64,000 nt of DNA from Saccharofermentans sp. (GCA_024685385.1 JAIKVV010000018.1:12422-76421), one strand, 5' to 3'. Shown: positions 1,315 through 22,380, counted from the first letter of the stretch. Program-made: numbers and translations. The notes: generated by a model from the sequence alone, not told the origin.

Positions 1315-2367
1315 TCAGACTGCCTTAACGTCCGGGTGATCTCCCCTGCCGGTAACTGCCTGATAGCCGATGGACTTAAGCCTTGCAGAGATGCATCTTG
1401 AACAAAGGGCGGCATCATCGGATATGCAGATCTTGCCGTCATATAACTGATACTTGCCGCGGTTTTCAACAGGTGAAAGATTGGGCATGATGACATTTGC
1501 ACCGGCCAGGATGCCTTTCTCCCGGCCTGATGCTTCAGCTGTTCCGAGAGCAGTTGTGGCAGGAAGCAGGACTTTAGGCAGCATGAGCCTTATCAGCGAC
1601 AATAATCTTAATGTCAGGGCTACATCTCCTGCAGGGCAGTCCGCAAAAGGAGTGTTCGCAGCAGGAAGGAAAGGGCCTATACCGATCATGTGAGGCTCGA
1701 ATCCTTTCATGAACATAAGGTCTTCCACTATATGGTCAAGTGTCTGTCCGGGTGTTCCCACCATGATCCCGCATCCGACCTGATAGCCGATTTCTTTCAG
1801 ATCATGAAGACACCTGATCCTGCTTGCCCATGACATCTTATCCGGATGGAGCAGGCCGTAGTGATCTTCATTGTATGTCTCGTGGCGCAGAAGATACCTG
1901 TCCGCACCGGCATCAAAATATGCTTTATATTCTTCACGGCTCTTCTCACCTATAGATAAAGTCACCGCGCAGTCGGGATGGCGCTCCTTGATCTTTGAGA
2001 CTATATAACAGATGTCTTCAGTTGAATATGTAAGATCTTCGCCGCTCTGCAGGACAAAAGTGCGGAATCCTATGTCATATCCCGAATCGGCACATCTTAT
2101 GATCTCATCAGCTGTCATGCGGTAGCGCTCACAATGCTTGTTTGATGCGCGGATGCCGCAATAATAGCAGTCGTTCTTACAATAATTGGAAAACTCGATT
2201 ATGCCGCGGATATAGACATCTTTGCCGAAAATGCTTTGAGCAACTTCCCTGGCTTTTTCCGCAAGGTATTCATCACAATACGCTGACGAGAGTATCTCCT
2301 TAAATTCATCAGCGGAAAGTGCCGTCGTCTCATAGAGTTTATCTATCAGCTTTTCGATATTCTCCAT
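1315..2367 (-). CDS. hydE: [FeFe]-hydrogenase H-cluster radical SAM maturase HydE
   Basis: 350 aa. The radical SAM motif CKNDCYYCG sits in the HydE-typical context IIEFSNYCxxxCxYCGIRxxN...RYRM. The gene starts 1 nt after the hydF stop. Confidence 0.85.
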   Translation of the reverse strand: MENIEKLIDKLYETTALSADEFKEILSSAYCDEYLAEKAREVAQSIFGKDVYIRGIIEFSNYCKNDCYYCGIRASNKHCERYRMTADEIIRCADSGYDIGFRTFVLQSGEDLTYSTEDICYIVSKIKERHPDCAVTLSIGEKSREEYKAYFDAGADRYLLRHETYNEDHYGLLHPDKMSWASRIRCLHDLKEIGYQVGCGIMVGTPGQTLDHIVEDLMFMKGFEPHMIGIGPFLPAANTPFADCPAGDVALTLRLLSLIRLMLPKVLLPATTALGTAEASGREKGILAGANVIMPNLSPVENRGKYQLYDGKICISDDAALCSRCISARLKSIGYQAVTGRGDHPDVKAV

Positions 2368-2368
2368 A

Positions 2369-3571
2369 TCATTCTCCGATCATCTCATAAAGATCAGGAA
2401 ACACCTTGATGCTCCTCTTTAATATCCCGTTCATATAAGCGATCGCAAGACCGTAGTTCGTGACAGGGCATCCCAGTGCCTTGGCTGTCTTGATCCTGCT
2501 CTTCATCTCACGGTCGTTGAGCATGCAGCCGCCGCAGTGAAGAACGAGTCTATAGGGGCTGAGGTCATCCGCAAAGGAAATGCCGGACGTTGTATCAAAG
2601 CTGATCTCTTTTCCCGTATATCTTCTGATCAGATTGGGAAGTTTTACGGTCCCAATGTCTTCACATTGTCTGTGATGACTGCAGCCTTCTGAAATAAGGA
2701 TTTTATCTCCGTCCTCTATCGAATCTAATGCTTTAAGGCCCTCAACGCAATCAGCAAGGATTCCCTTATGTCTTGCCATCAATATCGAAAAAGACGTCAA
2801 GAGGATATCATCCGGAACGATTTCCGAGACCCTCTTAAATGCCTGACTGTCCGTTATCACGAGCGCAGGCTTCTCCTTGAGCGACTTTATTGCTGCATCA
2901 AGCCCTTCGGGCTGAACGCAAAGGGTCGCGATATTGTATTCCAGAGCTTCCCTTATCACCTGCTGCTGAGGCAATATGAGCCTTCCCTTTGGAGCAGATG
3001 AATCGATGGGTATTACCAGTATGACTGTATCGCCCGCCCTGACCAGGTCAGAGATAAGAGGGCTTTCTTCAGGAATATCTTTTGCAAGGGATGCTATCTT
3101 TTCTTTAAGTTCATTGATGTTCGTCCCGTTAAGTGCGCTGACCGTTATGGAGTCAGAAGAAGCAGACTCAAATCCCTTTAGATCGGACTTGTTATAAGCG
3201 ATCACATAGGGAATGTCCCTTTCCTTAAAAAGCGATAACAATTCCTTATCGGTATTTCTCAAGCCTTCCGTTGAATCCACGACAAGAACGGCAACATCGA
3301 CTTTACGCAATATCTCACGGGTCCTTGCAACTCGCAGTTCCCCCAAAGATCCCGTGTCGTCGAATCCGGGAGTATCGATGATGACAACCGGGCCCATGGG
3401 CAGAAGTTCCATTGCCTTGCTGACAGGATCTGTGGTAGTGCCCTTGACATCGGACACAACGGCGAGCTGCTGGCCGGTAACAGCATTGACAAGACTTGAC
3501 TTCCCGCTGTTGCGGGCCCCGAAGAATCCTATATGGATCCTTTCTCCTGAAGGTACATCATTAAGGCTCAT
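2369..3571 (-). CDS. hydF: [FeFe]-hydrogenase H-cluster maturation GTPase HydF
   Basis: 400 aa. GTPase motifs GARNSGKSS (G1), DTPG (G3) and NKSD (G4). C-terminal Fe-S motif EGCSHH...LHCGGC. 4-nt overlap with the upstream gene. Confidence 0.85.
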   Translation of the reverse strand: MSLNDVPSGERIHIGFFGARNSGKSSLVNAVTGQQLAVVSDVKGTTTDPVSKAMELLPMGPVVIIDTPGFDDTGSLGELRVARTREILRKVDVAVLVVDSTEGLRNTDKELLSLFKERDIPYVIAYNKSDLKGFESASSDSITVSALNGTNINELKEKIASLAKDIPEESPLISDLVRAGDTVILVIPIDSSAPKGRLILPQQQVIREALEYNIATLCVQPEGLDAAIKSLKEKPALVITDSQAFKRVSEIVPDDILLTSFSILMARHKGILADCVEGLKALDSIEDGDKILISEGCSHHRQCEDIGTVKLPNLIRRYTGKEISFDTTSGISFADDLSPYRLVLHCGGCMLNDREMKSRIKTAKALGCPVTNYGLAIAYMNGILKRSIKVFPDLYEMIGE

Positions 3572-4728
3572 AACAAACCCTCCTTTATTGGATCGAATCC
3601 CGTAATATCCGGTATCTTCTTAAGATAAAGACGCCCGGACATTGCAAGATGCGGTAATTCGATAAACTTTATGTTCTCGGGACAGACATGCTTATATAAG
3701 GGGTCTGCGATCACGGTTTTTGCATCTTTAAAGGCTTCAATGAAATCATCTTCCCTATGACAATAAAGATCATTTCCGGAAGGAGCAAGAAGCGAACTGT
3801 CGCATACAGATACAACCCGGACATCAATATCGTTTCTTTTCTTTATCCCTGCCGCGATCGAGGATGCAGTTACAATTTCTCCCGCGATAATTCTATCTGT
3901 CCCGTTGCGATTGATCTCCTCATATGAAATACAAGGTTTTGATGTTTTAAAAGCATTCCTCAGTTCCCTGAAAACCGTATCAGCAAAACCTGCCGCAGGG
4001 AATCCTGCAACATAAGGGATACCGAAACTCTCATAAAGATACTTTGCGCAGGCGAGGCCCGTTGAGGAAATAACGAGATTTACATCAGTTGAAACAAGAT
4101 TGCCGCTGACCGCACCTTCTGACAGATCTCCCATGGCAAGTGAATACAAGACCTCAAAGCCGTTTGATTCCAGCATAGATACGACGGAAGCGATCGTCTC
4201 GGGATTTGCAAAGTCCAAAGGGGTTGCGCCGATGATGCCGGCTCTTATCTTCCCTGTTTTATTTGTCGTTTTCTTATCGATTCCCGAAGTCATTTGACGC
4301 ACATATGCTTCAAATGCTTTCGAAGCTCCGGATGCATAATCTCCCGTCGCGTTAGTTGACACATAAAAGCAAGGGATCCCGGTCCTTCCTGTGATCACTT
4401 TGGCAATGCCTTCAAAATCGGTACCGTTAAGAAATGGTATCGGAGAATTTGCCAAGGCGATAAATCTTGGAGATAAAGCATCAGCGGCATCAAGGATCGC
4501 ATTGATGAAGCGGTCGTCATTACCTGTTATGGCATCCATGTCATTAAGACCTGAAATATATATCAGACTGTCTTCATTGTACCAGCGGGTCTCATCGTGA
4601 GTGTTATATGTTGAATTACAGCCTGACGGATCATGGATCACGGTCATTCCGCCGAGTTCATAGAGAGCAGAAGCAGCGCCTGAAACGTCTCCTGTCAGGA
4701 CAGGCAGGATCCTGAATGTATTTCTCAT
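3568..4728 (-). CDS. Nitrogenase component-1-type oxidoreductase, NifK/NifN/BchB-like small partner (pair 2)
   Basis: I moved the start to ATG 4728 (MRNTF...), which gives an ATGA overlap with the upstream stop. Clear paralog of the 10843-11859 product, sharing SGAxxxLY, VIxDxxGC, DExRW, SGLxDMDAIxGxD and GxPCxxVSxN. The GC motif resembles the NifK/NifN HGxxGC motif. Confidence 0.7.
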   Translation of the reverse strand: MRNTFRILPVLTGDVSGAASALYELGGMTVIHDPSGCNSTYNTHDETRWYNEDSLIYISGLNDMDAITGNDDRFINAILDAADALSPRFIALANSPIPFLNGTDFEGIAKVITGRTGIPCFYVSTNATGDYASGASKAFEAYVRQMTSGIDKKTTNKTGKIRAGIIGATPLDFANPETIASVVSMLESNGFEVLYSLAMGDLSEGAVSGNLVSTDVNLVISSTGLACAKYLYESFGIPYVAGFPAAGFADTVFRELRNAFKTSKPCISYEEINRNGTDRIIAGEIVTASSIAAGIKKRNDIDVRVVSVCDSSLLAPSGNDLYCHREDDFIEAFKDAKTVIADPLYKHVCPENIKFIELPHLAMSGRLYLKKIPDITGFDPIKEGLL

Positions 4729-6023
4729 ATGCAGCTTACACACCCCAAACCCTTTCTCGGAACGATATCTTCCGTGTCGGATTCATTATCGTATGCATCC
4801 TTTATAAGTTCCGATAATCTTATCAATCCTTTGTATCCGTAAAGACCTTTAGCCTCGATAATATTTACGAAATGCTTCGTTCCGCAAAACCATGCAGCCT
4901 TCTGTCCGATCGCAAGATAATCACCGTCCAAACGTTCGGAAACCCTGCATCCCGGAGCGATCGTGGCTTCGATCAGAAGATCAGGATATTTTTCTTTCAA
5001 CAGTCCGAAAGCAGGCTCTTCTTCCAAAGAAACTGAATCAGCATATACTTTCTTTACGTTGATTCCGTGTTCAAGCAAGAGATAAGCAAGGCCGAAAGGT
5101 CTCGGATGCGCAGTATAATCGATCGCCACAGGCTTATCCTGAATATATGCTCTCAATTCATCAAGCGCATTATCAAGTCCGGTCTTGAGATCTGTCATAT
5201 CCGGCAATTCAATTCCAAGAGAAACTGCAAGCCTTCTCTCCCCTTCTTCTATCTCTTCTGGCAGCACAGCGAAAGGAAGATAGAGATAAGGTATGGAACA
5301 TCTCTCAGAAAATGACTTGACTCCGAGATCTCCGGTCGGATAGTTGCAGATATTTAAAGAAGCATTTCCAAGTTCCATATATTCTTCGAAAGTCTTCGTA
5401 TCGAAGATCTCCCGGGTCTCATATCCGGCCTTGTGTATCAGATCAAATATCTCTGAATCCTTAAACAAAGGCATATCAGAGCCTAAAATATTTACGGTCT
5501 TCTCATGCCGTTCTGAAGACGGAACAACTTCAAGCATCGCACGGCGCAAGGTCTGTTCAGGCGTTATATGAAGTTTTTGCATGATCGGATCCATGAAAGC
5601 CCTGATGAAAGTAACCCCGGGAAATTCCTTCTCAAGATTGGAATATACATATTCAAGATCGCAGTTTAAGAAGTGGTGAACGCATACCGGGAATACTATG
5701 ACAGCCGGAGGCAGTTCATCGAACTTCAAAAGGAGTTCCCTGATCCCCTCAAGAGTAACAGCCGTTATGTCTTCGGATACCATCTCATGTTCTTCCAGGA
5801 CAACTCCCGAAATGCGGTCCAGCATGTCCATTTCCGCAGCCGTCATTATTACGCCGCGCATGCAGTTATCGGCACAGATATAGACCTGGTGCGACCCGGG
5901 AAGTTGCATTCCGATATGCACGATGTTCCAGGTCCCGTGCACTGGCGCGTTGAATTCAAGTCCTGCCTTGAAAGGCGCAGGGAAACTTGCATCTTTTATC
6001 TTAACTGCTATGGTCTTATCCAT
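4725..6023 (-). CDS. Nitrogenase component-1-type oxidoreductase, NifD/NifE/BchN-like large partner (pair 2)
   Basis: 432 aa. Paralog of the 11856-13148 product: YICADNC aligns with VAPGCCG, and PPAVIVFPVCVHHFLNCD aligns with [18 protein letters not shown]. The protein ends ...RKGLGCVSCI. Confidence 0.65.
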   Translation of the reverse strand: MDKTIAVKIKDASFPAPFKAGLEFNAPVHGTWNIVHIGMQLPGSHQVYICADNCMRGVIMTAAEMDMLDRISGVVLEEHEMVSEDITAVTLEGIRELLLKFDELPPAVIVFPVCVHHFLNCDLEYVYSNLEKEFPGVTFIRAFMDPIMQKLHITPEQTLRRAMLEVVPSSERHEKTVNILGSDMPLFKDSEIFDLIHKAGYETREIFDTKTFEEYMELGNASLNICNYPTGDLGVKSFSERCSIPYLYLPFAVLPEEIEEGERRLAVSLGIELPDMTDLKTGLDNALDELRAYIQDKPVAIDYTAHPRPFGLAYLLLEHGINVKKVYADSVSLEEEPAFGLLKEKYPDLLIEATIAPGCRVSERLDGDYLAIGQKAAWFCGTKHFVNIIEAKGLYGYKGLIRLSELIKDAYDNESDTEDIVPRKGLGCVSCI

Positions 6024-6027: not shown

Positions 6028-6279
6028 TCAACCTACGACGTTTGAATATGTTGTCTTTACCGTTACACCTTCAAGACATCCGATCCTGCCGGACACTTCA
6101 CTCGTTATGTCCTGAGGCGCATCGATCGCGACCGTGATGATGCTTATATTTTTCGCGTGATAAGGAATACCCATTCTTCCGATTACGAAAGGAGCTGCTT
6201 CATGAAGGAGCTCGTTGATCTTTTCGACGGAATTCATGTCAGATACGATTATTGTAATAACGGCTACTCTTGTTTCCAT
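6028..6279 (-). CDS. TM1266-family putative iron-only hydrogenase system regulator (small ACT/NikR-C-like protein)
   Basis: 83 aa: METRVAVITIIVSD...GRMGIPYHAKNISIITVAIDAPQDITSEVSGRIGCLEGVTVKTTYS. This matches my recollection of the TM1266 family that sits beside hydE/hydG in Thermotoga. Confidence 0.6.
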   Translation of the reverse strand: METRVAVITIIVSDMNSVEKINELLHEAAPFVIGRMGIPYHAKNISIITVAIDAPQDITSEVSGRIGCLEGVTVKTTYSNVVG

Positions 6280-6293: not shown

Positions 6294-7298
6294 TCAGCAG
6301 ATCCTCGGCAGAAGTTCCTTTCCCGGAGGGGGCAGGAATGTCATGCCGCCGATGGATGTCTTCATGACTACTTTGCCTTTGTGATCGTCCGTAACCCTGC
6401 CGATTATCTTAGCGCCGGCAGTTTCTTCATAAGCGCTCAAGATCTCTATTGCCTTGTCTTCAAATTCAGAAGGCACGATGATCACAAGACGCCCCTCACA
6501 GGCAAGGTACAAAGGTTCAAGACCCAGAAGGCCTGTTACGCCGCGTACGGCAGGGTCCACCGGGATATCATCTGAAACGATCTCGATCCCCACATCAGAT
6601 GCATCGCAGATCTCATAAAGCACGGTTCCGACTCCGCCTCTCGTGGCATCTCTTATGACGTGAGTTTCAGGGATCTTTGAAACCACGGCAAGAGCGGGAT
6701 CTGCCAAAGGAGCGCAGTCAGATGTTACATCTGCTTCGATCCCGTACTCATCCCTTGCAAGCAGGATCGCACAGCCGTGTCTTCCGACGTCTCCCGTCAC
6801 GATAATCGAATCTCCGGGCTTTGCAAAAGCACCGGAAAGATTTACTTCATTTTCTATGACACCTACTCCTGCGGTCGTGATAAACAGGCCGTCCACCTGA
6901 CCTTTGCCTGCAACTTTCGTATCGCCTGCAACGATCTTGACGCCTGCCTTGCGGGCAGTCTCTCCCATGGCCTTAGCGATCTCTTCAAGGTCGGATACGG
7001 CAAAGCCTTCTTCGATTACATAGGAACATGTAAGATACAAAGGTCTTGCACCCATGCATGCGATGTCATTGACAGTGCCGCAGACCGAGAGTTTTCCGAT
7101 ATTGCCGCCGGGGAATTTCCAGGGAGATACGATGAATCCGTCTGTTGACATTGCGATCTTCCCTTCCGGGGCCGGCATTACGGCAGCATCGTCTGCGGTA
7201 AAATATTCATTATCGAGATTTTTCTTAAAGATACCGGCAATCAGTTCAGAAGTCTTATGTCCGCCTGAACCGTGGCTTAAAGTTATCTTATCTTCCAT
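6294..7298 (-). CDS. hypE: Hydrogenase maturation protein HypE (carbamoyl dehydratase)
   Basis: 334 aa with an AIR-synthase-like fold. Motif GGNIGKLSVCGTVNDIACMGA and the diagnostic C-terminal PRIC. Confidence 0.9.
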   Translation of the reverse strand: MEDKITLSHGSGGHKTSELIAGIFKKNLDNEYFTADDAAVMPAPEGKIAMSTDGFIVSPWKFPGGNIGKLSVCGTVNDIACMGARPLYLTCSYVIEEGFAVSDLEEIAKAMGETARKAGVKIVAGDTKVAGKGQVDGLFITTAGVGVIENEVNLSGAFAKPGDSIIVTGDVGRHGCAILLARDEYGIEADVTSDCAPLADPALAVVSKIPETHVIRDATRGGVGTVLYEICDASDVGIEIVSDDIPVDPAVRGVTGLLGLEPLYLACEGRLVIIVPSEFEDKAIEILSAYEETAGAKIIGRVTDDHKGKVVMKTSIGGMTFLPPPGKELLPRIC

Positions 7299-8337
7299 TA
7301 TCGATCAGTCCTCCATACAAGTAATATGCCGAGCAGGCACCCTCATCCGAGACCATGCAGGCGCCGACCGGATGGTCGGGAATGCAGGCTTTGCCGAACA
7401 TGGGGCATTCGAACGGCTTGATCTTTCCTTGCAGGACTTCACCGCACCTGCAGGGAGTCTTATATTCTTCCTTCATGTCGGGAATGGCAAACTTGACGCG
7501 CGCATCGAACTCACTGAATTCATCGCGGAGTTTCATGCCAGACATAGGGATCACACCGATTCCGCGCCAAAGCGCATCACAAGGCTCCATAAATTCATTA
7601 ACCAGTCTCATTGCGGCAGGAGCTCCTTCTTCCCTTACTACTCTGGGGTAGCAGTTTACAAGGAAAGGCTCTCCCTCCTGACATTTCTTAACCGCAACTG
7701 CAAGCGCTGTCAGAAGTTCAGGACCCGTAAAACCTGCAATGACGCCGCTCGTGCCTTTGGCGAGCATGGCTTTGCAGTCAGCTGTTCCCGTTATTGCATG
7801 AACATGCCCGGGATAAAGATAGCAGTCAGTGGAATCAGCCAGGACTTCATAGGCTCTGGGCATCGTCTTGTTAGCCGTCAATATCGAAAAGTTCTTTATC
7901 CCCTTTTCTTTTGCATATTTGACTGCGATAACATCTGATGGGGTCGTTGTTTCAAAACCTACAGACAGGAACACAACCTCCCTGTCTGGATTCTTCTCGG
8001 CGAAAAGAACGGCATCCTGAGGCGAATATACAACATTGATCTGTGCTCCCTGCCCGCGTTCTTTGATCATGGAAGACTTGATGCCGGGCACTTTTACAAG
8101 ATCGCCGAATGTCGTGATGACACATTCTTTTTCTCTTGCAAGCCAGCATGCCTCATCGATATAGTCCGCTGACGTAACGCACACAGGACATCCCGGGCCC
8201 GATATCAGTTCGATGTCATCAGATAACAGCTGTCTGATTCCGAGCTTGAATATCTCATGCGTATGGGTGCCGCATACTTCCATGATACGGATCTTGGGAC
8301 CCTTATAACTTTTAAGTACCGTTGCCGCTTCGTTCAT
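7288..8337 (-). CDS. hypD: Hydrogenase maturation protein HypD
   Basis: 349 aa. Motifs CGTHTHE (CGxHxH), GPGCPVC and GFETT, plus the C-terminal CRCGEV...CPMFGKAC cysteines. Confidence 0.9.
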   Translation of the reverse strand: MNEAATVLKSYKGPKIRIMEVCGTHTHEIFKLGIRQLLSDDIELISGPGCPVCVTSADYIDEACWLAREKECVITTFGDLVKVPGIKSSMIKERGQGAQINVVYSPQDAVLFAEKNPDREVVFLSVGFETTTPSDVIAVKYAKEKGIKNFSILTANKTMPRAYEVLADSTDCYLYPGHVHAITGTADCKAMLAKGTSGVIAGFTGPELLTALAVAVKKCQEGEPFLVNCYPRVVREEGAPAAMRLVNEFMEPCDALWRGIGVIPMSGMKLRDEFSEFDARVKFAIPDMKEEYKTPCRCGEVLQGKIKPFECPMFGKACIPDHPVGACMVSDEGACSAYYLYGGLIDNGR

Positions 8338-8546
8338 GACAGATACTCCTTCGCCAAAGTCTCTGATTCCGTAATGTCATCAGCCGTGATCCTTGCTATG
8401 GCAGCACCTGCATGGACCATAACGAACTCACCGGGTTCCAGGTCATCAAGGAGCGCTGCGGAAACTTCACGTCTTGCTCCGGATGAATCGACCAGGGCAA
8501 CATCACCCTTGACGCTTACTACTTTTGCAGATAATCCTACACACAT
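8334..8546 (-). CDS. hypC: Hydrogenase maturation chaperone HypC/HupF family
   Basis: 70 aa. N-terminal MCVG with the essential Cys2. 4-nt overlap with hypD. Confidence 0.85.
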   Translation of the reverse strand: MCVGLSAKVVSVKGDVALVDSSGARREVSAALLDDLEPGEFVMVHAGAAIARITADDITESETLAKEYLS

Positions 8547-8551: not shown

Positions 8552-10846
8552 TTATCCTCCGATCTTTGATAACTTATTCATTCCATACAGGGCCTGTCCC
8601 AGAGCAACGCCGCCGTCATTAGGCGGAACTACAGAATGGATCAGGACTTTTTTGCCTTCTTTTTCGAGTCTCTTTTTAACTTCTGTCAGCAGAAGCTTAT
8701 TCTGGAAGCATCCGCCGCTTAAAGCAAATGTATCTATATCCCCTGCAGCATCCAGCGCGCATCTTGCCGCACCTTCGGCAAGCATTAAATGGAAGGTCAT
8801 GGCGAGTTTATCAGGATCTTCACCTTTGATCCTTTCATCAGTTATAAATCTTACGATCTCATCTGTTGCAACGATCTTTCTTCCGGATCCCGATCTTACA
8901 TATTCAATGTCAGGGATCACCGGTTCATTGATATTCCTTTCTGCGGCGAACTGCAGTTCCATTGCAGCATGTCCTTCAAATGTGGATGTCTTCCTGATCC
9001 CGAGGATGGCCGATACTGCATCGAAGAGCCTTCCCGTTGATGTCGACTTGACCGTATTGATCTTCTTTTCGATCATCTTGCTGATCGCCCTGAAAGCATT
9101 CAGATCACAAAGATCGAGCACTCTAATGACATCTTCGCTTCCATCTTTATAGATCGACCCTATCATCGAAAGAGCGATCCGGTAACCTTCACGTGAAGCG
9201 AGGTCACCTCCGCAGTGATCGAAAGGAGCGATGGATCCCGCTCTTTCAAACCCGTCGAGGCTGCATCTTAATATCTCGCCGCCCCAGATCGTGTCATCCT
9301 CACCGAAGCCCGTGCCGTCCAAAGCAATACCCATGACTTCGTCCGTATAGTCGTTCTCCGCCATGCAGGACAATATATGCGCATAATGGTGCTGAACCCT
9401 GATTATCTTTCTGCCGGATTCTTCCGCAAGAAGCGATGAGACATATCTTGGGTGAAGATCGCAGACGGCATATTCAGGATCCGTCTCGAGAAGTTTGTTC
9501 ATCTTGATAACTGACGACTTCAAGACTTCTGAAGACCTCATATCTTCCATGTCTCCGATGTAAGATGACGGATAGAAGAGATTGTCATGCGCTATGCAGA
9601 ATGTATTTTTTAGATCTGCTCCGTATGCGACAAGCTCACCTTTAAATTCTTTGCTCAGCATCATGGGCAGCGGAGCATATCCCCGGGAACGTCTGATCAT
9701 ATAGAGTTTCCCGTCGAGCGTATCCGTGACCGAATCATCGGTCCTGATATTGATGTCCCTGTCGTGGGATAGTATAAGATCACAAAATCCCGACAGCATG
9801 GAGAATGCTTCTTCATCCGTCGATGCTATGGGAGCGCCCGAGACATTGCCCGATGTCATAATGAGAACGGGACTTACCAATGTGTCATCCTTATAATCAA
9901 AGATCAAACAATGCAAAGGAGCATAAGGCAGCATAACGCCTATAGTGGGATTGCCGGGAGCAACCTTTTCGGACAGGAAAGGTACTCCTTCCCCCTCTTT
10001 CTTATCAAGAAGGACTATGGGCTTGTTATGGCCCGTAAGGATCTCTTCTTTGAAAGGATCCGTCTTGCAGTATCTTCTTACCGTATCGATATCTTTCATC
10101 ATCACGGCAAAAGGCTTATGGGGTCTTGATTTAAGCTGTCTTAATCTTTCGACGGCAGCATCGTTTGCCGCATCACAGCAAAGGTGGAATCCTCCTATGC
10201 CCTTTACAGCGATAACCTTGCCAAGAGCGACTGCTGATCTAGCCGTTCTTATGGCTTCCTCACCTTTAATGTCAGTTCCGGCGATGTAAACAGAAGGTCC
10301 GCAGTCATTGCAGCAGACCGGCTGGGCATCGTATCTTCTGGATGAAGGATCATAATATTCTTTCTCGCATACGGAGCACATGGGGAATTTCCTCATCGAT
10401 GTCCTGGGTCTGTCGTAAGGCAAAGAATCCAGGATCGTAAGGCGGGGACCGCAGGATGTGCAGTTAATGAAAGGATGGAGATACCTTCTGTCATTCTTGT
10501 CATAAAGTTCGGAAAGACATTCATCGCAAATTGCAATATCGGGAGATACGAAGATCTCTCCTTCAACCTTGCTGCTCTCTATGATCTCGAAAGTCTTATA
10601 TTTCTCATCAGGATCTTTTTCCTTGATATCCATCTTTAATACAGCGGAACGCTTGGGCGGCTCGTACTTTATCTTATCGATGAATTTTTTAACATCATCT
10701 TCTTCCCCCTGCGCCAAAATCTCAACGAAAGGTCCTTTGTTGCATACATATCCCGTGACAGCGCATGCTGATGCGTGTCTTGCAACGGTAGGTCTCATGC
10801 CTACTCCCTGGACTATGCCGTAAACCTTGATCCTGACGCTCTTCAT
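8552..10846 (-). CDS. hypF: Carbamoyltransferase HypF
   Basis: 764 aa. Acylphosphatase N-domain (VQGVGMRP), two CxxC-x18-CxxC zinc fingers (CDEC...CTSC and CSVC...CNDC), then YrdC-like and Kae1-like halves. Confidence 0.92.
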   Translation of the reverse strand: MKSVRIKVYGIVQGVGMRPTVARHASACAVTGYVCNKGPFVEILAQGEEDDVKKFIDKIKYEPPKRSAVLKMDIKEKDPDEKYKTFEIIESSKVEGEIFVSPDIAICDECLSELYDKNDRRYLHPFINCTSCGPRLTILDSLPYDRPRTSMRKFPMCSVCEKEYYDPSSRRYDAQPVCCNDCGPSVYIAGTDIKGEEAIRTARSAVALGKVIAVKGIGGFHLCCDAANDAAVERLRQLKSRPHKPFAVMMKDIDTVRRYCKTDPFKEEILTGHNKPIVLLDKKEGEGVPFLSEKVAPGNPTIGVMLPYAPLHCLIFDYKDDTLVSPVLIMTSGNVSGAPIASTDEEAFSMLSGFCDLILSHDRDINIRTDDSVTDTLDGKLYMIRRSRGYAPLPMMLSKEFKGELVAYGADLKNTFCIAHDNLFYPSSYIGDMEDMRSSEVLKSSVIKMNKLLETDPEYAVCDLHPRYVSSLLAEESGRKIIRVQHHYAHILSCMAENDYTDEVMGIALDGTGFGEDDTIWGGEILRCSLDGFERAGSIAPFDHCGGDLASREGYRIALSMIGSIYKDGSEDVIRVLDLCDLNAFRAISKMIEKKINTVKSTSTGRLFDAVSAILGIRKTSTFEGHAAMELQFAAERNINEPVIPDIEYVRSGSGRKIVATDEIVRFITDERIKGEDPDKLAMTFHLMLAEGAARCALDAAGDIDTFALSGGCFQNKLLLTEVKKRLEKEGKKVLIHSVVPPNDGGVALGQALYGMNKLSKIGG

Positions 10847-11859
10847 GAATCGTCACCCGCAGAAGATACCGCATAGTGCGGAAGGATCATGACTCTGCCT
10901 TTATAATCGGGGATCAAAGGCAGATAAGTTGCATCACAAACGAGGTTATCAAAACCGCCATTCATTACAAGATGTGTAAATTCATCTTCTTCCGTGAGGA
11001 TGAGATCTCCTTCCTGCTTGAGCTCATCATGAAGAGTAAAAAATGTTGCGGCAGTAACGTCTGATCCGGACTTATTCCTTATCGAATATCCCGCGACTTC
11101 ATCATGGACGACCAATGTCCTGCCTTCCGGTATAACAAGATCAAAGACTGCAGGATCTTCGATCTTATATTCTGTTCCAAACCTGCTGTTTAATTTCTTC
11201 ACGATGTCAATGCCGCATGATGAAACTGCGACATTAAGGATGTTGGACGATGCATCCATAACATCTTCCAAAGAAGCGCCGCAGCCGTACATACGGACAT
11301 TCCCGTAGCCTTGTTTCTTATAATATTCAAAGACCTTGTCGCGAGAAGACCTTCCCATATCAAGGGGAAGCGCGCCGAATATTCCGACTGTATTTTCATC
11401 GGATGGTCTTTCATCCTTTGCAAACTTTTCGAAAAGCCTCACATATGCATCAGATGCACCCCTGTCATAGAGACGCATGCCGTTTGAGGAAACAGCGACA
11501 CAAGGCTTCCCTGTCTTGCGTTCGATCATGTATGTGAGAGCATTATAGTCAGTAGCTATTACGGCCGGAACGGGAGTTCCTACGAGAGCCGTAAACTTAT
11601 ATTCTCCCGCCTCATGGGCTTTGACTATCTTCTTTACGAGAAGCTCATCTCTTCCCAGGATCGCATCCATGTCGCGGAGACCCGCAGAGAATATGCCGGC
11701 AGCAGTATCCTGCCATCTGGGCTCATCAAATCCGCATATGTTGCCGGTGCAGCCGCCTGCATCGATTATCACTATCAGAGCAGCGGAATCGTAAAGAACT
11801 CCGACGGCTCCGGACTGGTCAGGTGCAAATGGCGTCAATACTTTACGAAGACCTTTCAT
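10843..11859 (-). CDS. Nitrogenase component-1-type oxidoreductase, NifK/NifN/BchB-like small partner (pair 1)
   Basis: 338 aa. Motifs DAGGCTGNICGFDEPRW, SAGLRDMDAILGRD and GKPCVAVSSNG. Paralog of the 3568-4728 product. 4-nt overlaps at both ends. Confidence 0.7.
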   Translation of the reverse strand: MKGLRKVLTPFAPDQSGAVGVLYDSAALIVIIDAGGCTGNICGFDEPRWQDTAAGIFSAGLRDMDAILGRDELLVKKIVKAHEAGEYKFTALVGTPVPAVIATDYNALTYMIERKTGKPCVAVSSNGMRLYDRGASDAYVRLFEKFAKDERPSDENTVGIFGALPLDMGRSSRDKVFEYYKKQGYGNVRMYGCGASLEDVMDASSNILNVAVSSCGIDIVKKLNSRFGTEYKIEDPAVFDLVIPEGRTLVVHDEVAGYSIRNKSGSDVTAATFFTLHDELKQEGDLILTEEDEFTHLVMNGGFDNLVCDATYLPLIPDYKGRVMILPHYAVSSAGDDS

Positions 11860-13148
11860 GACAAAGCCTCCTCTATCGCATCGATGAGCTTGACTATTCC
11901 CTTGTAGCCATAAGGCTGAACATCCGAATTCCAGGGGATGTTCGGAACATCGGGACAGTAGTATGCGGCATCCTTGCCGAGAGTCAGATCAGGGGCATCT
12001 TCTGATGCCGAATAATTGATCATGGAAGGATCAAGATTACAAAAGAGCATAGTATCAGGAGATAACTCAGCCAGTTTCTTAACATAGACAAAGTAATCCG
12101 GAGAGAGAGTCGCATAGATCTCACCGACCTTCATACCGTATCTGGTGAGCGTCAGCGCAAGTTCAAAAGGATTGGCGTTGATGCATTCACCGATATTTAC
12201 TTTCCTGCCTTTGTATTTCTCCATGAAAGCCCTGATCTTATCTTCCGCCTCATCATAGAAGACCGTATCATCCATCCCGGTTCCCAGGATCTGTCCCAAA
12301 GCCTTATACTGCTTTGCAACCTGATCTATCCCGTAGACTCTTGTAAGCCCCGCATAAGGGATCTTCAAGTTGTTATACATGTCTTCTGCCGCAGGATTTG
12401 CTTCGTTATTGAGGACCAGGTTAAGATTTGCCTGACTCATCTTAAGAAATTCATCGTAACTATTACAAGTTCCGATCTGTCTTATATCATCAAATCCGAT
12501 GCTCTTTAAGAGTTCAAACATCTCGCAGTCAGGATCTACGGGAGCAAAGAAACCAAGGAGATTTATTGCATTCCCTTTCCTTACTGAGGGGGCAAGCAGA
12601 GAATATATCTGCTGCCTTACATCCACCATCGGAGGTCTCCTGCCTTCACGCGTTAATGCATACATATAGCAGGGCGCGACACGGACGCCTTCCACAAGTT
12701 CTTCGCACCTTGCGCAGACTCTTTTCATATCCGTCCCCAACAGCGCATCAACACAGGTTATGCATATCATTACGGCCCTGGGCCTTACTTCGCAGAATTC
12801 CACTATCTCCTTAACTGCCTCAGGGATCTTCTTAAGATGCCTTGAAGTAACAAGATCCGTTTCGTCCATCATCAGATAGAAGAACCTGCCGTTATACTCG
12901 GGATTTTTCGTTACATATCTGGTATTTCTTCCGCAGCAGCCGGGAGCCACTATCAGCATGACGGATTCGGGCACTGCAAGTCCTGCCCTCTTAACGCCGA
13001 ATCCTTCCGCGCCCGGGGAGTTATATGCAAGCGTTGCAGGCGAACTATAGACAAGGCCCTCATTTCCCTTCAACCCGGAAGGGATATTGTCCTTGCCCAA
13101 AGATGCTATATAGCCCGCTTTATAACTTACTGCTCCTGCCATTATCAC
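11856..13148 (-). CDS. Nitrogenase component-1-type oxidoreductase, NifD/NifE/BchN-like large partner (pair 1)
   Basis: 430 aa. VAPGCCGRN, and [13 protein letters not shown] which resembles the NifD/NifE CxxxxIGDD region. 4-nt overlap with the NifH-like gene stop. Confidence 0.65.
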
Positions 13149-13897
13149 CCTTCTCCTTTAAGGAGGTCTTCCGCAAGTTTCTTAAAGCAAAGGGAAGCTT
13201 CGCAATCAGGGGCACCTTCGATTACGGTCATGCCCTGATCTTCACAGATATTGATATCATCGCTTCTCGGGATCCTGCCTACGACCGGAACATTATGTTC
13301 CTCTGCAAAGGCCTCGACTTTCCGGTCCTCATCGGGGATATTCCTGTGGTTTAAGACAAGTCCTTCCACCCTTGCATAACTTCTCTCTTCAAAATTCTTT
13401 ACCGCCGTGATTATGTTGTTGGCTGCATAAAGGGCCATCTTCTCGCCCGATGTAACTATAAGGACCTTCTCGGCATAGCCCTGTCTTATGGGAGCCGCAA
13501 AACCGCCGCATACGACATCGCCCAGAACATCGTAGAGAACCACATCCGGCTTTACTTTATCGAAAAGAGCAAGCTCATCGATGAGATCGAAAGTCGCGAT
13601 TATGCCTCTGCCGGCACAGCCCAGGCCCGGTGTGGGGCCCCCGGTCTCGATGCATACGACTCCGCTGAATCCGACACGGGAAATATCTTCGTATGTATCT
13701 ATGTCAGCTTCGTCGCGGAGCATATCGATAACGGGCTTGACAGTATTGCCTCCCAAAAGGTTCGTAGTAGAGTCGGCTTTGGGGTCGCACCCTATCTGCA
13801 CGACTTTCTTCCCCATGGAAGCAAAAGCCGCGGCAAGATTTGCTGTTACGGTGGATTTACCGATCCCGCCTTTACCGTATATCGCAAGTTTGAGCAT
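13145..13897 (-). CDS. NifH/BchL/CfbC-family ATPase (nitrogenase iron protein-like reductase component)
   Basis: I moved the start to ATG 13897 ([16 protein letters not shown]), with an AAGGAG RBS 7 nt upstream. P-loop GKGGIGKS and switch I CDPKADST are present. Both [4Fe-4S] cysteines are present, in GCAGRG and DVVCGGF. Confidence 0.85.
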
Positions 13898-14056: not shown

Positions 14057-14617
14057 TCAGAGTCTTATCCACATCTTGCAGTAAGCCTGTGTCCTTGCAG
14101 CAAAATTATTCCCCTCAAGGAGATTAGCAAGCTCTTCTTTCCCGTACCATTGGGCAGTGATCTCTTCTTCATCCGAAGTACTGGGCTTAAATATGCCTTT
14201 AGCCTTGCCCAGGATGCACATGCTCTTCTCATTCGTTATGCCTACGCCTGAATAACTGACGGGCCAGATCTCGTCTACTGATATGAGTTCAAGCCCTGTT
14301 TCCTCCTCAAGTTCACGCTTGGCAGCTTCTTCGGGGGTCTCTCCTTCATCGATGAGCCCTGCAGGGAAATTATAAGCAAAATCCCCTACCGCCATCCTGA
14401 ATTCCTTGTTGAGCAGGATCTTGGAACCGTCTTCACTTGTTACGATCAGGATGACCGCATCACATTTATTGGCTTTAATGTCTTCCAGCGATTTAAGGTC
14501 CTTATTGCGGCTCACCATCTCATAGACCTTGGTGTTTCCCAGGGCCGTCTCATATTCGGCATCGTATGAAGTGATGTATTTTCCTTCATGCGTCTTGCTT
14601 ATTCCCTTAAAGATCAT
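14057..14617 (-). CDS. NUDIX hydrolase (ADP-ribose pyrophosphatase-like)
   Basis: 186 aa with the Nudix box GLIDEGETPEEAAKRELEEETG. Confidence 0.85.
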   Translation of the reverse strand: MIFKGISKTHEGKYITSYDAEYETALGNTKVYEMVSRNKDLKSLEDIKANKCDAVILIVTSEDGSKILLNKEFRMAVGDFAYNFPAGLIDEGETPEEAAKRELEEETGLELISVDEIWPVSYSGVGITNEKSMCILGKAKGIFKPSTSDEEEITAQWYGKEELANLLEGNNFAARTQAYCKMWIRL

Positions 14618-14736: not shown

Positions 14737-15087
14737 ATGTCATTTCAGAGAGCATTGTGGCACAGCGGACTTACATATCAGCAGAGGTGTAAGAACTGCG
14801 GAACACAGATCAGGTATACTGATGAGAGCCTTGATTTCAGACCCTGGTATGCAGACGGCTTCGTAGTCTGCCCCAAGTGCAAGGCCAATATCCGTCACAG
14901 CGAGGCATTCGCCATCAATCCGGACGGAACCCCTTACAACAACGGAACAGGCCCCGTTATGGTTAATCAGGCTGCTCCCGTTCAGCAGGGCGTTGTTTCC
15001 GGCATGATGTATTGCAGCAACTGCGGCAAGCAGTATAATCCCGCAACGGATCATTTCTGTTCGGGCTGTGGCAACAAGCTGGGCTGA
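14737..15087 (+). CDS. Zinc-ribbon domain protein
   Basis: 116 aa. Cysteine pairs CKNCG...CPKC and CSNCG...CSGCG, joined by a Pro/Gln/Val-rich linker. Confidence 0.7.
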   Translation: MSFQRALWHSGLTYQQRCKNCGTQIRYTDESLDFRPWYADGFVVCPKCKANIRHSEAFAINPDGTPYNNGTGPVMVNQAAPVQQGVVSGMMYCSNCGKQYNPATDHFCSGCGNKLG

Positions 15088-15187: not shown

Positions 15188-15262
15188 TGGAGCCAAAGGT
15201 GGGAATCGAACCCACGACCTATTCATTACGAGTGAATTGCTCTACCCCTGAGCCACTTTGGC
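15188..15262 (-). tRNA. tRNA-Thr (anticodon CGU), CCA encoded
   Basis: The 75-nt cloverleaf was folded by hand. Acceptor GCCAAAG/CUUUGGC, D arm GCUC...GAGC, anticodon stem AUUCA/UGAAU with loop CUCGUAA, T arm GUGGG-UUCGAUU-CCCAC. Confidence 0.95.
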
Positions 15263-19808: not shown

Positions 19809-20990
19809 TCAGTGATGGAACAGTCTGATGCCGTTGAATGCCATGGCAATGCCAAACTTGTCACAGGTCTCGATGACCTGATCGTCACGGACTGATCCGC
19901 CGGGTTCAACAACATAGCGGACGCCGCTCTTATAAGCACGCTCGATATTGTCGCCGAAGGGGAAGAATGCATCTGAACCAAGGGAAACATCAGTGTTCTT
20001 GGAGATCCATTCTTTCTTCTCTTCACGGGTAAGAGGAGCGGGGCACTCGGTGAAGAACTTCTGCCATGTGCCTTCTGCCAAAACATCCATATAATCGTCA
20101 GAGATATAGATATCGATGGTATTGTCTCTGTCAGGACGTCCGATATCCGCCTTGAAAGGAAGGTTCAATACCTTGGGATTCTGCCTCAGCCACCAGTTGT
20201 CGGCCTTGTTGCCTGCGATCCTGGTGCAGTGGATCCTTGACTGCTGTCCTGCGCCTATACCGATTGCCTGACCGTCCTTAACAAAGCAGACGGAATTGGA
20301 CTGGGTATATTTCAGAGTGATGAGAGCGATCATGAGATCGATCTTCTTATCATCGGGGATATCCTTCTTAGCCGTTACGACATTGGCAAGGCTCTCTGTG
20401 TTAACGACAAGGTTGTTCCTTCCCTGCTCGAATGTTACACCGAATACCTGCTTTGTCTCAATGGGATTGGGAACATAATCGGGATCCATCTTAAGGATGC
20501 AGTATGAGCCCTTTCTCTTGGACTTTAAGATCTCAAGAGCTTCGTCTGTATAACCGGGAGCGATGATGCCGTCTGATACTTCTCTCTTGAGCATGGTAGC
20601 CGTGATGGCATCACATGTATCGGAAAGAGAAACGAAATCACCGAAGGAGCTCATTCTGTCAGCGCCTCTTGCTCTTGCATAAGCGCAAGCAATGGGGGAA
20701 AGTTCTCCCAAGTCATCTACAAAGTAGATTGCCTTTTCTGTATCTGAAAGGGGCTTGCCTACTGCAGCGCCTGCCGGAGAAACATGCTTAAAGGATGTTG
20801 CGCTGGGAAGACCCGTTGCGCGCTTTAATTCGGATACGAGCTGCCAGCCGTTGAAAGCATCAAGAAGGTTGATGTAGCCGGGGCGGCCGTTCAGGACCTC
20901 AAAAGGGAGTTCCGTGCCGTCAGCCATGAAGACTCTGGACGGCTTCTGGTTGGGATTACAACCGTACTTCAATTCCATTTCGTTAGACAT
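19809..20990 (-). CDS. purH: Phosphoribosylaminoimidazolecarboxamide (AICAR) formyltransferase, transformylase-only PurH form
   Basis: 393 aa. It begins ...MELKYGCNPNQ and ends ...AFNGIRLFHH. It lacks the N-terminal MGS-like IMP cyclohydrolase domain. Confidence 0.85.
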   Translation of the reverse strand: MSNEMELKYGCNPNQKPSRVFMADGTELPFEVLNGRPGYINLLDAFNGWQLVSELKRATGLPSATSFKHVSPAGAAVGKPLSDTEKAIYFVDDLGELSPIACAYARARGADRMSSFGDFVSLSDTCDAITATMLKREVSDGIIAPGYTDEALEILKSKRKGSYCILKMDPDYVPNPIETKQVFGVTFEQGRNNLVVNTESLANVVTAKKDIPDDKKIDLMIALITLKYTQSNSVCFVKDGQAIGIGAGQQSRIHCTRIAGNKADNWWLRQNPKVLNLPFKADIGRPDRDNTIDIYISDDYMDVLAEGTWQKFFTECPAPLTREEKKEWISKNTDVSLGSDAFFPFGDNIERAYKSGVRYVVEPGGSVRDDQVIETCDKFGIAMAFNGIRLFHH

Positions 20991-21014
20991 TTTTATATGA
21001 CCCTCCTAAAAATA

Positions 21015-21728
21015 TTAAACGTTTTTGTTGACGATCCTGGTCTCTGCCTCGCCCGTTGCGATATCGATGAAACGGACAAAGAGAGAAACCTTGTTATCCT
21101 CATTAAGAGCATTCCAGAGATTATCCGTAAAAGCATCGATATCACCGTCGATGGAAACCTTTACGGGCTCGCCTTCAAAGCTGGGAAGAGGATTTCCGTT
21201 GCCGATGTAGGTGTGGATGATCCTGCCGTCACCTGCCAGAGGATTAGTGTATGTGAAAGTATGTCTTTCGCAGGAATCGGGATTGCCGTCAGCGCTCTTT
21301 AAGATGGACATGGCATAGTTGAATGTATTATTTTCGATATGAAGGATGCCGGAGATCCTGGGCGTATAGTTGGGAGCATCATCTTCGAACTCACGGGTTC
21401 TTAAAGCCTGCTCGAATGTCTGCTGCTTATCCATCTGCTCGTAGATCGTATCTGTCTGGTCACCATTGGTAACAATGGTCTTGTTCCCGAGAACCCTTAC
21501 AGGCGAATAGATGATGAGATGGGGATCTGTAAGCTTTGAGGGATCGAAAGCCTCTGTCTTGATACCGTCAGCCGTGGGAACAAAGACACGGTTTCTGGAG
21601 TTAACGGATCTTCCCATGATGAAGTAACCCGTTACGGCATACTTTCCGCATGCGCTCTTTCCGATTACGATACCGCGGCCCGGGTACTCGTTGCTCTTGA
21701 CATAATCAAAGAGATTCTTCTTTTCCAT
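21015..21728 (-). CDS. purO: IMP cyclohydrolase (PurO-type)
   Basis: 237 aa. N-terminal YPGRGIVIG. It sits between purN and the cyclohydrolase-less purH. Confidence 0.7.
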   Translation of the reverse strand: MEKKNLFDYVKSNEYPGRGIVIGKSACGKYAVTGYFIMGRSVNSRNRVFVPTADGIKTEAFDPSKLTDPHLIIYSPVRVLGNKTIVTNGDQTDTIYEQMDKQQTFEQALRTREFEDDAPNYTPRISGILHIENNTFNYAMSILKSADGNPDSCERHTFTYTNPLAGDGRIIHTYIGNGNPLPSFEGEPVKVSIDGDIDAFTDNLWNALNEDNKVSLFVRFIDIATGEAETRIVNKNV

Positions 21729-21744
21729 AGTGACATCCTCCTAT

Positions 21745-22374: not shown

Positions 22375-22380
22375 CTTCCT

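Follow-up and report, generated by a model that had tools for sequence, protein, structure and literature searches.

A nitrogenase-like trio heading a Hyp/Hyd maturase operon: a possible, previously undescribed way of making an iron carbonyl/cyanide cofactor

Cofactor routes and nitrogenase-like systems

We know of only three routes to the iron carbonyl/cyanide cofactors of hydrogenases (Hyp, Hyd and Hcg) and, to our knowledge, complex Fe-S cofactors are built on a nitrogenase-type scaffold by a single route, NifB with NifEN. HypCDEF makes Fe(CN)2(CO), whereas the [2Fe]H unit requires CO in excess of CN; in H-cluster maturation, Fe(CO)2(CN) normally comes from HydG. The TM1266 family takes its definition from genomes carrying HydEFG, and in every case known to us HydF is the dedicated carrier to HydA. 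In vitro, HydE and HydF activate HydA partially without HydG, and exogenous CO/CN- raises the activation (PMC9431212).

Among the nitrogenase relatives, MAR carries ligands for a P-cluster and for an L-like cluster (MarD Cys270/His429), and the NifB-like MarB is encoded next to it. The Group VI NFL systems have a NifH that is sister to group V and B12/HemN-type radical SAM neighbours, and are found in Elusimicrobia, Gracilibacteria and Myxococcales. Genetic context has so far been of little help in this superfamily, according to a 2026 review of nitrogenase-like systems, which leaves out the system described here. The sole prior literature on it is one sentence (Dos Santos 2012) that makes the same guess on function as we do. 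The operon physically unites parts of Hyp, Hyd and Nif, and adds to the nitrogenase-like superfamily a lineage with a clear genetic context.

The operon and its conservation

The window (the whole 64-kb stretch of DNA that was analysed) carries a translationally coupled 12-gene operon, running from 13897 to 1315 in the order NifH-D1-K1-HypF-HypC-HypD-HypE-TM1266-D2-K2-HydF-HydE, with successive genes spaced by -11 to +14 nt (Table 1). The first three genes had been picked out in a preliminary description, whose coordinates, partner lengths and quoted motifs all agree with the translations; all three ORFs are on the minus strand. The trio does not stand alone, however: that description had missed the Hyp/Hyd maturase operon of which it is the head, together with a second D/K pair.

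Table 1. Features of the operon and its upstream neighbour.
Feature	Position	Strand	Length (aa)	Assignment and remarks
NUDIX hydrolase	14057..14617	-		PF00293; directly upstream of the trio, membership of the system uncertain
NifH-like ATPase	13145..13897	-	250	'NifH-A' type; length from ATG at Met9
D1	11856..13148	-	430	NifE/NifD-like large subunit
K1	10843..11859	-	338	NifN/NifK-like small subunit
HypF	8552..10846	-	764	carbamoyltransferase; all five HypF Pfam domains
HypC	8334..8546	-	70	PF01455 and TIGR00074, both above cut-off
HypD	7288..8337	-	349	PF01924, 427 bits
HypE	6294..7298	-	334	AIRS and AIRS_C domains
TM1266	6028..6279	-	83	TM1266-family ACT-like protein; TIGR03959, 100.5 bits (cut-off 60.8); PF21699
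D2	4725..6023	-	432	second NifE/D-like large subunit, D1 paralogue; Oxidored_nitro
K2	3568..4743	-	391	second NifN/K-like small subunit, K1 paralogue; Oxidored_nitro, E=1e-21; start likely Met6 at 4728
HydF	2369..3571	-	400	GTPase scaffold; TIGR03918, 545 bits (cut-off 326)
HydE	1315..2367	-	350	radical SAM maturase; TIGR03956, 540 bits (cut-off 255)

The Pfam matches (Fer4_NifH for the NifH-like protein, E=5e-87, 292 bits; Oxidored_nitro for D1, E=2e-30, and K1, E=1e-14) place the trio far beyond chance. The NifH-like ORF, which can be extended upstream to a GTG at 13921, has an intact P-loop, switch I and switch II and both cluster cysteines (C102, C138), as had been claimed for all but switch II. 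Catalytic motifs are intact in all Hyp proteins, HydE and HydF: four CxxC zinc-finger motifs and HHYAH in HypF (which overlaps K1 by 4 nt), an N-terminal Met-Cys in HypC, CGTHTH, GPGCPVC and GFETT in HypD, a C-terminal PRIC in HypE, the cluster motifs CSH and HCGGC in HydF, and CKNDCYYC in HydE. HydF scores 340 bits against the Thermotoga HydF structures and HydE 298 bits against T. maritima HydE (PDB 3cix), each with ∼ 50% identity to the crystallized protein. Both are ordinary equivalog-level orthologues.

At least 145 bacterial species of the gut and rumen share the operon. Its hosts are Clostridia, Coriobacteriia and Erysipelotrichaceae; gene order is kept across all three, with overlapping stop/start codons, and the same order surrounds D1 homologues at 57-59% identity. 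HypFCDE and D1 lie in order upstream of D2 at 53 of the 56 species loci with sufficient upstream sequence. K2 is present in all 67 loci scored, HydF is adjacent in 45 (67%) and HydE in 29 (43%). The D1/K1 pair is invariably joined to HypF-C-D-E; D2/K2 is joined to TM1266, HydF and HydE. Single-ORF D1-K1 fusions in 18 species loci show that this pair is one physical unit; NifH-D2 and D2-K2 fusions also exist.

The constant order and overlapping codons argue against a trio that acts as an independent small-molecule reductase (of a sulfur compound, for example, cf. MAR/ISR) and is merely co-transcribed through shared anaerobic/iron regulation. Clostridia commonly carry uncharacterized Group IV NFL systems, and sulfur metabolism is the role of many NFL systems; however, the trio has neither sulfur-metabolism genes nor NifB/MarB next to it, and the MAR ligand set is absent. 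We consider this explanation very improbable.

Comparison with the nitrogenase family

On curated family scores the trio lies outside every characterized nitrogenase-family clade and is not a nitrogenase. The NifH-like protein reaches 302.9 bits with the NCBIfam nifH model (TIGR01287, cut-off 394.35), 300.2 with that of CfbC (NF033200, cut-off 402), 207 with BchL (cut-off 345) and 199 with BchX (cut-off 331). For D1 and K1 the scores are 30-58 bits, on models whose cut-offs lie near 500 (58 and 31 bits, respectively, for NifE, cut-off 505), and K2 scores 30.7 bits for BchB (cut-off 490) and 24 bits for NifN (cut-off 327). No functionally defined clade is thus entered, in line with the preliminary assignment to an uncharacterized nitrogenase-like type that does not fix N2.

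DPOR/COR can be set aside on the BchL, BchX and BchB scores. CfbCD is excluded by the CfbC score, by a heteromeric and sometimes fused D+K pair rather than a single CfbD-type subunit, by the clostridial, coriobacterial and erysipelotrichaceal hosts and by the absence of cfb genes. MAR is rejected as well, the MarD Cys270/His429 positions not being conserved and no NifB-like MarB gene being present; by fold, the MAR structures (MarDK; 9fmg/9d9u) and BchNB are matched no more closely than NifDK/EN. The neighbours and hosts of Group VI NFL (Elusimicrobia type) differ from those of the operon, and by profile score the NifH-like protein is nearer to NifH and CfbC (∼ 300 bits) than to BchL (207 bits). 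Like CfbCD, DPOR/COR, MAR and ISR, the trio couples an ATP-dependent NifH-type reductase to a component-1-fold partner, and the FeMo-co ligands are missing as in CfbD, DPOR and ISR. Unlike these enzymes, it is not set among tetrapyrrole, sulfur or NifB/MarB genes.

That the trio is a true nitrogenase of compact form has a vanishingly small probability. The NifH-like protein is closer to C. pasteurianum NifH (235 bits) than to BchL (167 bits), but it falls below the NifH equivalog cut-off, neither NifE nor NifN is matched at equivalog level, and no NifB lies nearby, whether in the 64-kb window or at the loci. Both FeMo-co ligands are replaced: the equivalent of alpha-Cys275 (NifE Cys250) is N247 in D1 and Asp/Asn across the family, and that of alpha-His442 is Gly, the 'PYHG' His position reading directly as 'PYGY' in D1 and 'LYGY' in D2. 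Three of the six P-cluster cysteines checked (alpha 62, 88, 154; beta 70, 95, 153) are kept, with D1 C72 at alpha-88, D1 C132 at alpha-154 and K1 C37 at beta-95. The beta-153 position is Thr/Pro, and no Cys precedes C71 in D1 or C37 in K1.

NifE is the best PDB sequence match and the closest solved relative of D1, whose profile aligns with A. vinelandii NifE (PDB 3pdi_A) over nearly the full length; the AF2 model of D1 (pLDDT 83) has the nitrogenase component-1 fold (TM 0.57-0.71). Like NifEN with NifH, the system has a heteromeric, sometimes fused D/K-type pair with a NifH partner, a paralogous second pair and a radical SAM enzyme at an earlier step of the pathway. A NifEN/DPOR-type inter-subunit cluster site, formed by the NifE 'GPIAC' and 'ATCV' and NifN 'HGxQGC' cysteines, may also be present: of the four NifEN [4Fe-4S] positions (NifE C37, C62, C124; NifN C44) three are kept, as D1 C72 and C132 and K1 C37. 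In contrast to NifEN, identity is only 16-18%, the subunits are shorter, equivalents of NifE Cys37 and of the L-cluster ligand Cys250 are missing in D1, and the partners are HypCDEF, HydE and HydF, not NifB and NifX. Extra adjacent cysteines (D1 C71 and C129, K1 C42) could substitute for the absent first NifE Cys.

Conservation was counted over 42-83 homologues. D1 retains C71, C72, C129, C132, C145 and C160 in ≥ 95% of them, H104 in 97% and C228 in 86%; a 17-residue motif, C145 and C160 are family-specific. The motifs quoted for the supposedly cysteine-poor partners are present, but D1 with its 13 cysteines does not fit that label. The conserved cysteines of K1 are C37 and C42. Just 10% of homologues retain the KPCVAVSS Cys, which had been quoted as well; it is not a ligand candidate.

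D1 and D2 align over their full length (hhalign E=1e-40), as K1 and K2 do with each other (E=1e-51), whereas either pair reaches only E=1e-5 to 1e-17 with any solved relative. This paralogy mirrors the NifDK/NifEN duplication. D2 (AF2 pLDDT 88) conserves C50, C54, C114, H29, H36 and H116 and ends in a conserved GLGC tail, and K2 conserves C42, H37, H49 and H365. There are two NifH clades, each preceding its own D/K pair; in two-copy loci the D1-preceding NifH is 68-72% identical to the window protein and the D2-preceding one ∼ 50%. In the window NifH-A is the sole copy, and presumably it works with both pairs.

Outside the Hyd-linked clade, the nearest D2/K2 relatives (25-30% identity, E ∼1e-47) are in Peripla_BP_2-FecCD-ABC-NifH-D-K clusters, which share the NifH-D-K order and two bridging Cys with the operon. 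This is the context for an explanation in which the D/K proteins reduce an imported metal chelate or tetrapyrrole (cf. DPOR, COR, CfbCD), releasing or remodelling iron, and lie beside the Hyp/Hyd genes only because the iron or chelate is fed to cofactor synthesis. It is consistent with reduced variants that have TM1266-HydE-NifH-D2-K2 inside a FecCD/ABC/Peripla_BP_2 importer operon, and ABC-transporter-linked nitrogenase-like genes were recorded earlier (Dos Santos 2012). Neither the window nor 53 of the 56 full loci contains an importer, however, and D1K1 is tied to HypFCDE rather than to transporters. The importer-linked clusters themselves are without Hyp, HydF and D1/K1, and their D2 relatives lack the H36, H116/H117, C121 and C-terminal Cys tail that the Hyd-linked clade has gained. 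We regard chelate reduction as quite unlikely.

A proposed function and its alternatives

The locus resembles the HypCDEF branch of [NiFe]-hydrogenase maturation in having all four proteins complete and with intact catalytic motifs, and Fe(CN)2CO synthesis from carbamoyl phosphate is therefore expected. Unlike that pathway, no locus has a HypA/HypB-like ORF (motif scan) or the maturation endopeptidase, and a [NiFe] large-subunit motif occurs neither in the window nor at the loci. The Fe(CN)2CO unit thus does not go to any Ni site that these loci encode; it is likely to be passed to a nitrogenase-like protein or into the Hyd pathway. HydE, HydF and the TM1266 family protein recall HydE/HydF/HydG maturation, but HydG is absent from the window and from ∼ 80 loci (phmmer), HydE is the sole radical SAM ORF of the window and the loci, and HydA is a neighbour at just three loci (L009, L031 and L034), directly upstream.

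Of the two roles suggested in the preliminary description, reductase or assembly module, this context strongly favours the latter. We tentatively propose, from sequence and gene context, that the operon encodes a nitrogenase-like system of two modules for metallocofactor assembly, with the trio as module A. The system would be NifEN-like and ATP-driven, and its product a CO/CN-ligated iron cofactor, most plausibly a [2Fe]H-type subcluster whose synthesis does not need HydG. The NifH-like dimer would hydrolyse ATP and pass low-potential electrons to (D1K1)2, a NifEN-like scaffold/reductase acting on the Fe(CN)2CO unit that HypCDEF would form from carbamoyl phosphate. D1K1 might also supply or add CO by ATP-driven reduction. 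Its product would go to D2K2, HydE (radical-SAM chemistry) and HydF (carrier), which would complete a carbonyl/cyanide-ligated iron-sulfur cofactor; the Hyp and D1K1 half would then replace HydG as the source of Fe-CO/CN.

Several observations run against the assembly reading. Only 43% of loci have HydE alongside and only 67% HydF, the TM1266 family comes from genomes with HydEFG, and the Hyp product does not match the CO > CN need of the [2Fe]H unit. Two D/K pairs plus HydF seem too many scaffolds for pure maturation, nearly all known nitrogenase-like systems besides NifEN are catalytic reductases, and the nearest D2/K2 relatives belong to Fe-chelate ABC importer clusters without Hyp or HydF.

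One D/K pair could instead be a terminal enzyme and the other its scaffold (cf. NifDK/NifEN), with a new CO/CN-ligated iron cofactor from HypCDEF, HydE and HydF and with NifH/ATP driving H2/H+ chemistry or another small-molecule reduction. Two full-length paralogous pairs, strongly conserved pocket and ligand residues specific to the family in D1 (17-residue motif, C145, C160) and in D2 (H36, H116, C-terminal Cys tail), a self-contained cluster with no acceptor gene nearby in most loci, and the catalytic nature of other nitrogenase-like systems are consistent with such an arrangement. However, the classical cofactor positions have no Cys, no conserved substrate-related genes lie nearby, and HydE and HydF are ordinary orthologues, HydF being a dedicated carrier to HydA in the cases we know. 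We hold a terminal enzyme to be rather unlikely. Also rather unlikely is that the D/K proteins, beyond any scaffold role, form a new organometallic enzyme class, combining the nitrogenase fold, an Fe-CO/CN cofactor from hybrid Hyp/Hyd machinery and a NifH-type ATPase, as a fourth hydrogenase-like catalyst or an ATP-driven CO2/CO/H+ reductase widespread in rumen/gut fermenters.

If the operon makes a [2Fe] subcluster without HydG, it would provide a tyrosine-independent means of [FeFe]-hydrogenase maturation, which is potentially useful for heterologous H2 production, and would bear on the question of where CO comes from in anaerobic Hyp chemistry; should the cofactor instead reside on the D/K proteins, they would be a new enzyme class. 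Either way, the hosts include abundant rumen/gut Clostridia whose H2 feeds methanogens.

The NUDIX gene next to the trio is found between HypD and HypE, inside the operon, in two loci (L004 and L005) and is sporadic elsewhere.

Placement of the trio among nitrogenase-family proteins

The NifH-like protein and its partners D1 and K1 (the first NifE/D-like and NifN/K-like pair) are encoded by three overlapping minus-strand ORFs (Table), at the positions given in the preliminary description, and all motifs quoted there are found in the translations. Residue conservation was measured on 42-83 homologues from other genomes. In the NifH-like protein, C102 and C138, which correspond to Cys97 and Cys132, are retained. 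In D1, residues C71, C72, C129, C132, C145, C160 and H104 are conserved; in K1, the only conserved cysteines are C37 and C42. The 'KPCVAVSS' cysteine, previously counted among the few of K1, occurs in only 10% of homologues and is thus not conserved. Since D1 has no cysteine N-terminal to C71 and K1 none before C37, only three of the six P-cluster positions are filled.

For placement among groups I-VI, curated NCBIfam cut-offs and scores against PDB entries served as proxies for a reference phylogeny. With the NifH equivalog model the NifH-like protein reaches 303 bits (cut-off 394), with CfbC 300 (402), with BchL 207 (345) and with BchX 199 (331). Scores of D1 and K1 with the NifE, NifD and NifN models are just 30-58 bits, where the cut-offs lie at about 330-870. 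Among solved structures, the top match of D1 is the NifE scaffold (E = 3e-8 for the single sequence, 1e-12 for the family profile). The profile aligns residues 74-426 with Azotobacter vinelandii NifE 77-446, and in both alignments the NifE cluster cysteines of 'GPIAC' and 'ATCV' are matched by C72 and C132 of D1. The NifE cofactor cysteine (NifD α-Cys275) aligns to Asn247 of D1, where the family has Asp or Asn, and direct reading shows 'PYGY' at the α-His442 position ('PYHG').

AlphaFold models of D1 (pLDDT 83) and of D2 (pLDDT 88), its counterpart in a second, paralogous pair, show the nitrogenase component-1 fold. Both resemble NifK, NifE, NifN, NifD, Vnf/Anf, MarDK and BchNB about equally (TM 0.55-0.71, 10-18% identity); as fold searches with these models preferred no member of the family, structure does not narrow the function. 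Judged from its sequence, the trio is not a nitrogenase and lies outside every characterised nitrogenase-like family. The scores below the family cut-offs and the changed FeMo-co ligand positions support the original proposal of a low-potential reductase or assembly module that does not fix N2, and make a true nitrogenase extremely unlikely. One point of background needs correction: Mar enzymes had been described as using an inter-subunit [4Fe-4S] cluster, and the 2026 Chemical Reviews survey gives MAR P- and L-like clusters.

A 12-gene operon with Hyp and Hyd maturases

The trio opens a minus-strand string of 12 genes, in the order NifH-D1-K1-HypF-HypC-HypD-HypE-TM1266-D2-K2-HydF-HydE (13897 to 1315), in which neighbouring genes are -11 to +14 nt apart. 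This context is the main finding, and it makes the trio more interesting. All four Hyp proteins hit their family models and have intact catalytic motifs. HydF (545 bits, cut-off 326) and HydE (540 bits, cut-off 255) are assigned at the equivalog level of NCBIfam, and each is about 50% identical to its crystallised Thermotoga counterpart. D2 (432 aa) and K2 (391 aa) form a second Oxidored_nitro pair in Pfam. Profile-profile comparison establishes full-length paralogy (D1/D2 E = 1e-40, K1/K2 E = 1e-51), and the paralogues resemble one another much more than they do any solved relative. This duplication shares its logic with NifDK and NifEN. D2 ends in a flexible tail modelled with low confidence ('...VPRKGLGCVSCI'), in which K424, G427 and C428 do not vary within the Hyd-linked clade. 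This tail recalls the swinging C-terminal cysteine of HypE ('PRIC') and, by this analogy, could serve as a carrier arm. No Rfam element was found upstream of the operon. Promoter and terminator scans gave signals no higher than shuffled expectation, so the operon boundaries are not drawn from them.

Coordinates of features in the window and at homologous loci from other genomes (L numbers)
Feature	Location	Positions	Strand	Remarks
NifH-like protein	window	13145-13897	minus	from ATG at Met9; ORF reaches GTG at 13921; Pfam Fer4_NifH, 292 bits
D1, 430 aa	window	11856-13148	minus	Pfam Oxidored_nitro, E = 2e-30
K1, 338 aa	window	10843-11859	minus	Pfam Oxidored_nitro, E = 1e-14
D2 C-terminus	window	4725-4760		
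NUDIX hydrolase	window	14057-14617	minus	directly upstream of NifH-like gene; likewise in L006
116-aa ORF	window	14737-15087	plus	four CxxC pairs, zinc-ribbon-like
tRNA gene	window	15191-15262	minus	Rfam, 72.5 bits; between NUDIX region and next genes
Two purine-biosynthesis gene groups	window	19809-25555; 57444-62770		
TrpB-like PLP enzyme	window	25608-26999		
topA and trmFO	window	31005-34515		
Two very large ORFs, 909 and 1487 aa	window	41203-48395	minus	
Reduced form	L068; L075	5450-13026; 7991-15546		also L072, L074
Distant D2 tier	L086 and L087	6157-12810		about 27% identity; Peripla_BP_2-FecCD-ABC-NifH-D-K, no maturase genes
HydA	L009; L031; L034	17-1546; 119-1126; 12-923		immediately upstream of cluster
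Second NUDIX gene	L004; L005	15929-16438; 12873-13382		between HypD and HypE; another lineage
ThiC	L001-L003; L017	about 20609-21335; 12334-13641		directly downstream, opposite strand; also 11 other loci

Database relatives number in the thousands for D1 and likewise for D2, and are labelled just 'oxidoreductase', 'nitrogenase component 1' or 'hypothetical'; the D2 family alone comprises 794 clusters at 50% identity. When each species was represented by one genome, at least 145 genomes had a D2 relative, the closest (85% identity) in a Clostridiales MAG from yak rumen. The hosts are Clostridia of rumen and gut (Lachnospiraceae, Agathobacter, Eubacterium uniforme ATCC 35992, Sarcina sp. DSM 11001, Saccharofermentans, Mageeibacillus, Oscillospiraceae, Intestinibacter, Blautia), Coriobacteriia (Olsenella, Atopobiaceae) and Erysipelotrichaceae; Coprococcus catus GD/7 is a further cluster-bearing example. 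HypFCDE and D1 lie upstream of D2 in 53 of the 56 loci with enough flank; K2 is present in all 67 loci, with HydF adjacent in 45/67 and HydE in 29/67. D1 and K1 are fused into a single ORF, carrying both cysteine motifs, in 18 loci, and NifH-D2 and D2-K2 fusions also occur. Mere co-regulation of the trio with the maturases is an unlikely account of this arrangement.

Motif and phmmer scans detected no HydG-like radical SAM gene and no [NiFe] subunit in the window or at any locus (10 kb per side), and no HydA in the window. At the loci, HydA is likewise missing except in three, one of which (L009) was confirmed by Pfam Fe_hyd_lg_C and Fe_hyd_SSU. None of the loci has a HypA- or HypB-like ORF.

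Two modules and their importer-linked relatives

Seven loci carry two NifH genes of separate clades, one preceding D1 (NifH-A) and the other D2 (NifH-B). The NifH-like protein of the window shares 68-72% identity with the D1-linked copies and about 50% with the D2-linked ones. Intestinibacter and Blautia have a reduced form that consists only of TM1266-HydE-NifH(B-type)-D2-K2, inside a FecCD/ABC ATPase/Peripla_BP_2 importer operon; no Hyp genes, D1/K1 or HydF were found near it at its four loci. In L068, TM1266 domain and ABC ATPase share a single extended ORF call. A distant D2 tier (25-30% identity) comprises importer-NifH-D-K clusters without Hyd genes. It keeps the bridging cysteines C54 and C114 and lacks H36, H116/H117, C121 and the C-terminal 'GLGC' tail, all of which are present in the Hyd-linked D2 clade, reduced variants included. 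The two NifH clades, the reduced form and the importer-linked tier therefore suggest two modules, [NifH-A, D1K1, HypFCDE] and [TM1266, NifH-B, D2K2, HydF, HydE], with NifH-B lost from the window. The importer-linked relatives also suggest a chelate or tetrapyrrole reductase, a role that we consider rather improbable for this system.

The sole earlier mention of the system that we found is one sentence in Dos Santos et al. (2012), whose uncharacterised ABC-transporter-linked nitrogenase-like group is probably the L086/L087 tier. Full-text searches found no later literature on it: the equol-cluster paper deals with ordinary hydEFG, and the 2026 Mar preprint and the Elusimicrobia Group VI paper with other systems. 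The survey of nitrogenase-like systems in Chemical Reviews (July 2026) nowhere mentions Hyp, HydE or hydrogenase maturation, and regards genetic context as useful only for the sulfur-linked and tetrapyrrole-linked groups. The operon combines Nif-like, Hyp and Hyd assembly components in a hybrid that is widespread and essentially unstudied.

Possible function and genomic neighbourhood

The sequences directly support a NifH-type ATP-dependent electron donor and two D/K heteromers, each predicted to hold a NifEN/DPOR-type cluster between its subunits. HypCDEF is complete and should synthesize Fe(CN)2CO, and HydE and HydF look normal. As neither HypA/B nor a [NiFe] subunit is present, we argue that the Hyp product is not destined for a Ni site encoded here. 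Published evidence indicates that HydE together with HydF is able to load a [2Fe]-type precursor if diatomics are supplied from another source (PMC9431212); with HydG missing beside them here, a HydG-independent Fe-CO/CN supply is plausible. We tentatively favour an assembly line for a carbonyl/cyanide iron cofactor, in which D1K1 and NifH would act on the iron unit made by Hyp, possibly adding CO through ATP-driven reduction, and D2K2, HydE and HydF would complete and deliver the cofactor. The main rival, that one D/K pair is instead the terminal enzyme holding a new cofactor, appears doubtful.

The purine genes, TrpB-like enzyme, topA and trmFO of the window are ordinary chromosomal context, with no hydrogenase structural gene among them. 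Within the purine groups, purD is assigned at equivalog level, one ORF has a partial, below-cut-off purM match, and a PurH-like ORF was recognized solely from reading its translation. The NUDIX hydrolase was rejected as a core member because of its sporadic occurrence; the NUDIX gene of L004 and L005 is a different one. The recurrent flankers (ThiC, ABC ATPase, PFK, lyxose isomerase, fumarase) were likewise rejected, as lineage-specific housekeeping genes. CO and formate are products of ThiC chemistry; the position of ThiC next to the cluster, seen in a Saccharofermentans-like lineage, is probably a coincidence of that one lineage. The zinc-ribbon-like ORF lies divergently upstream of the operon.
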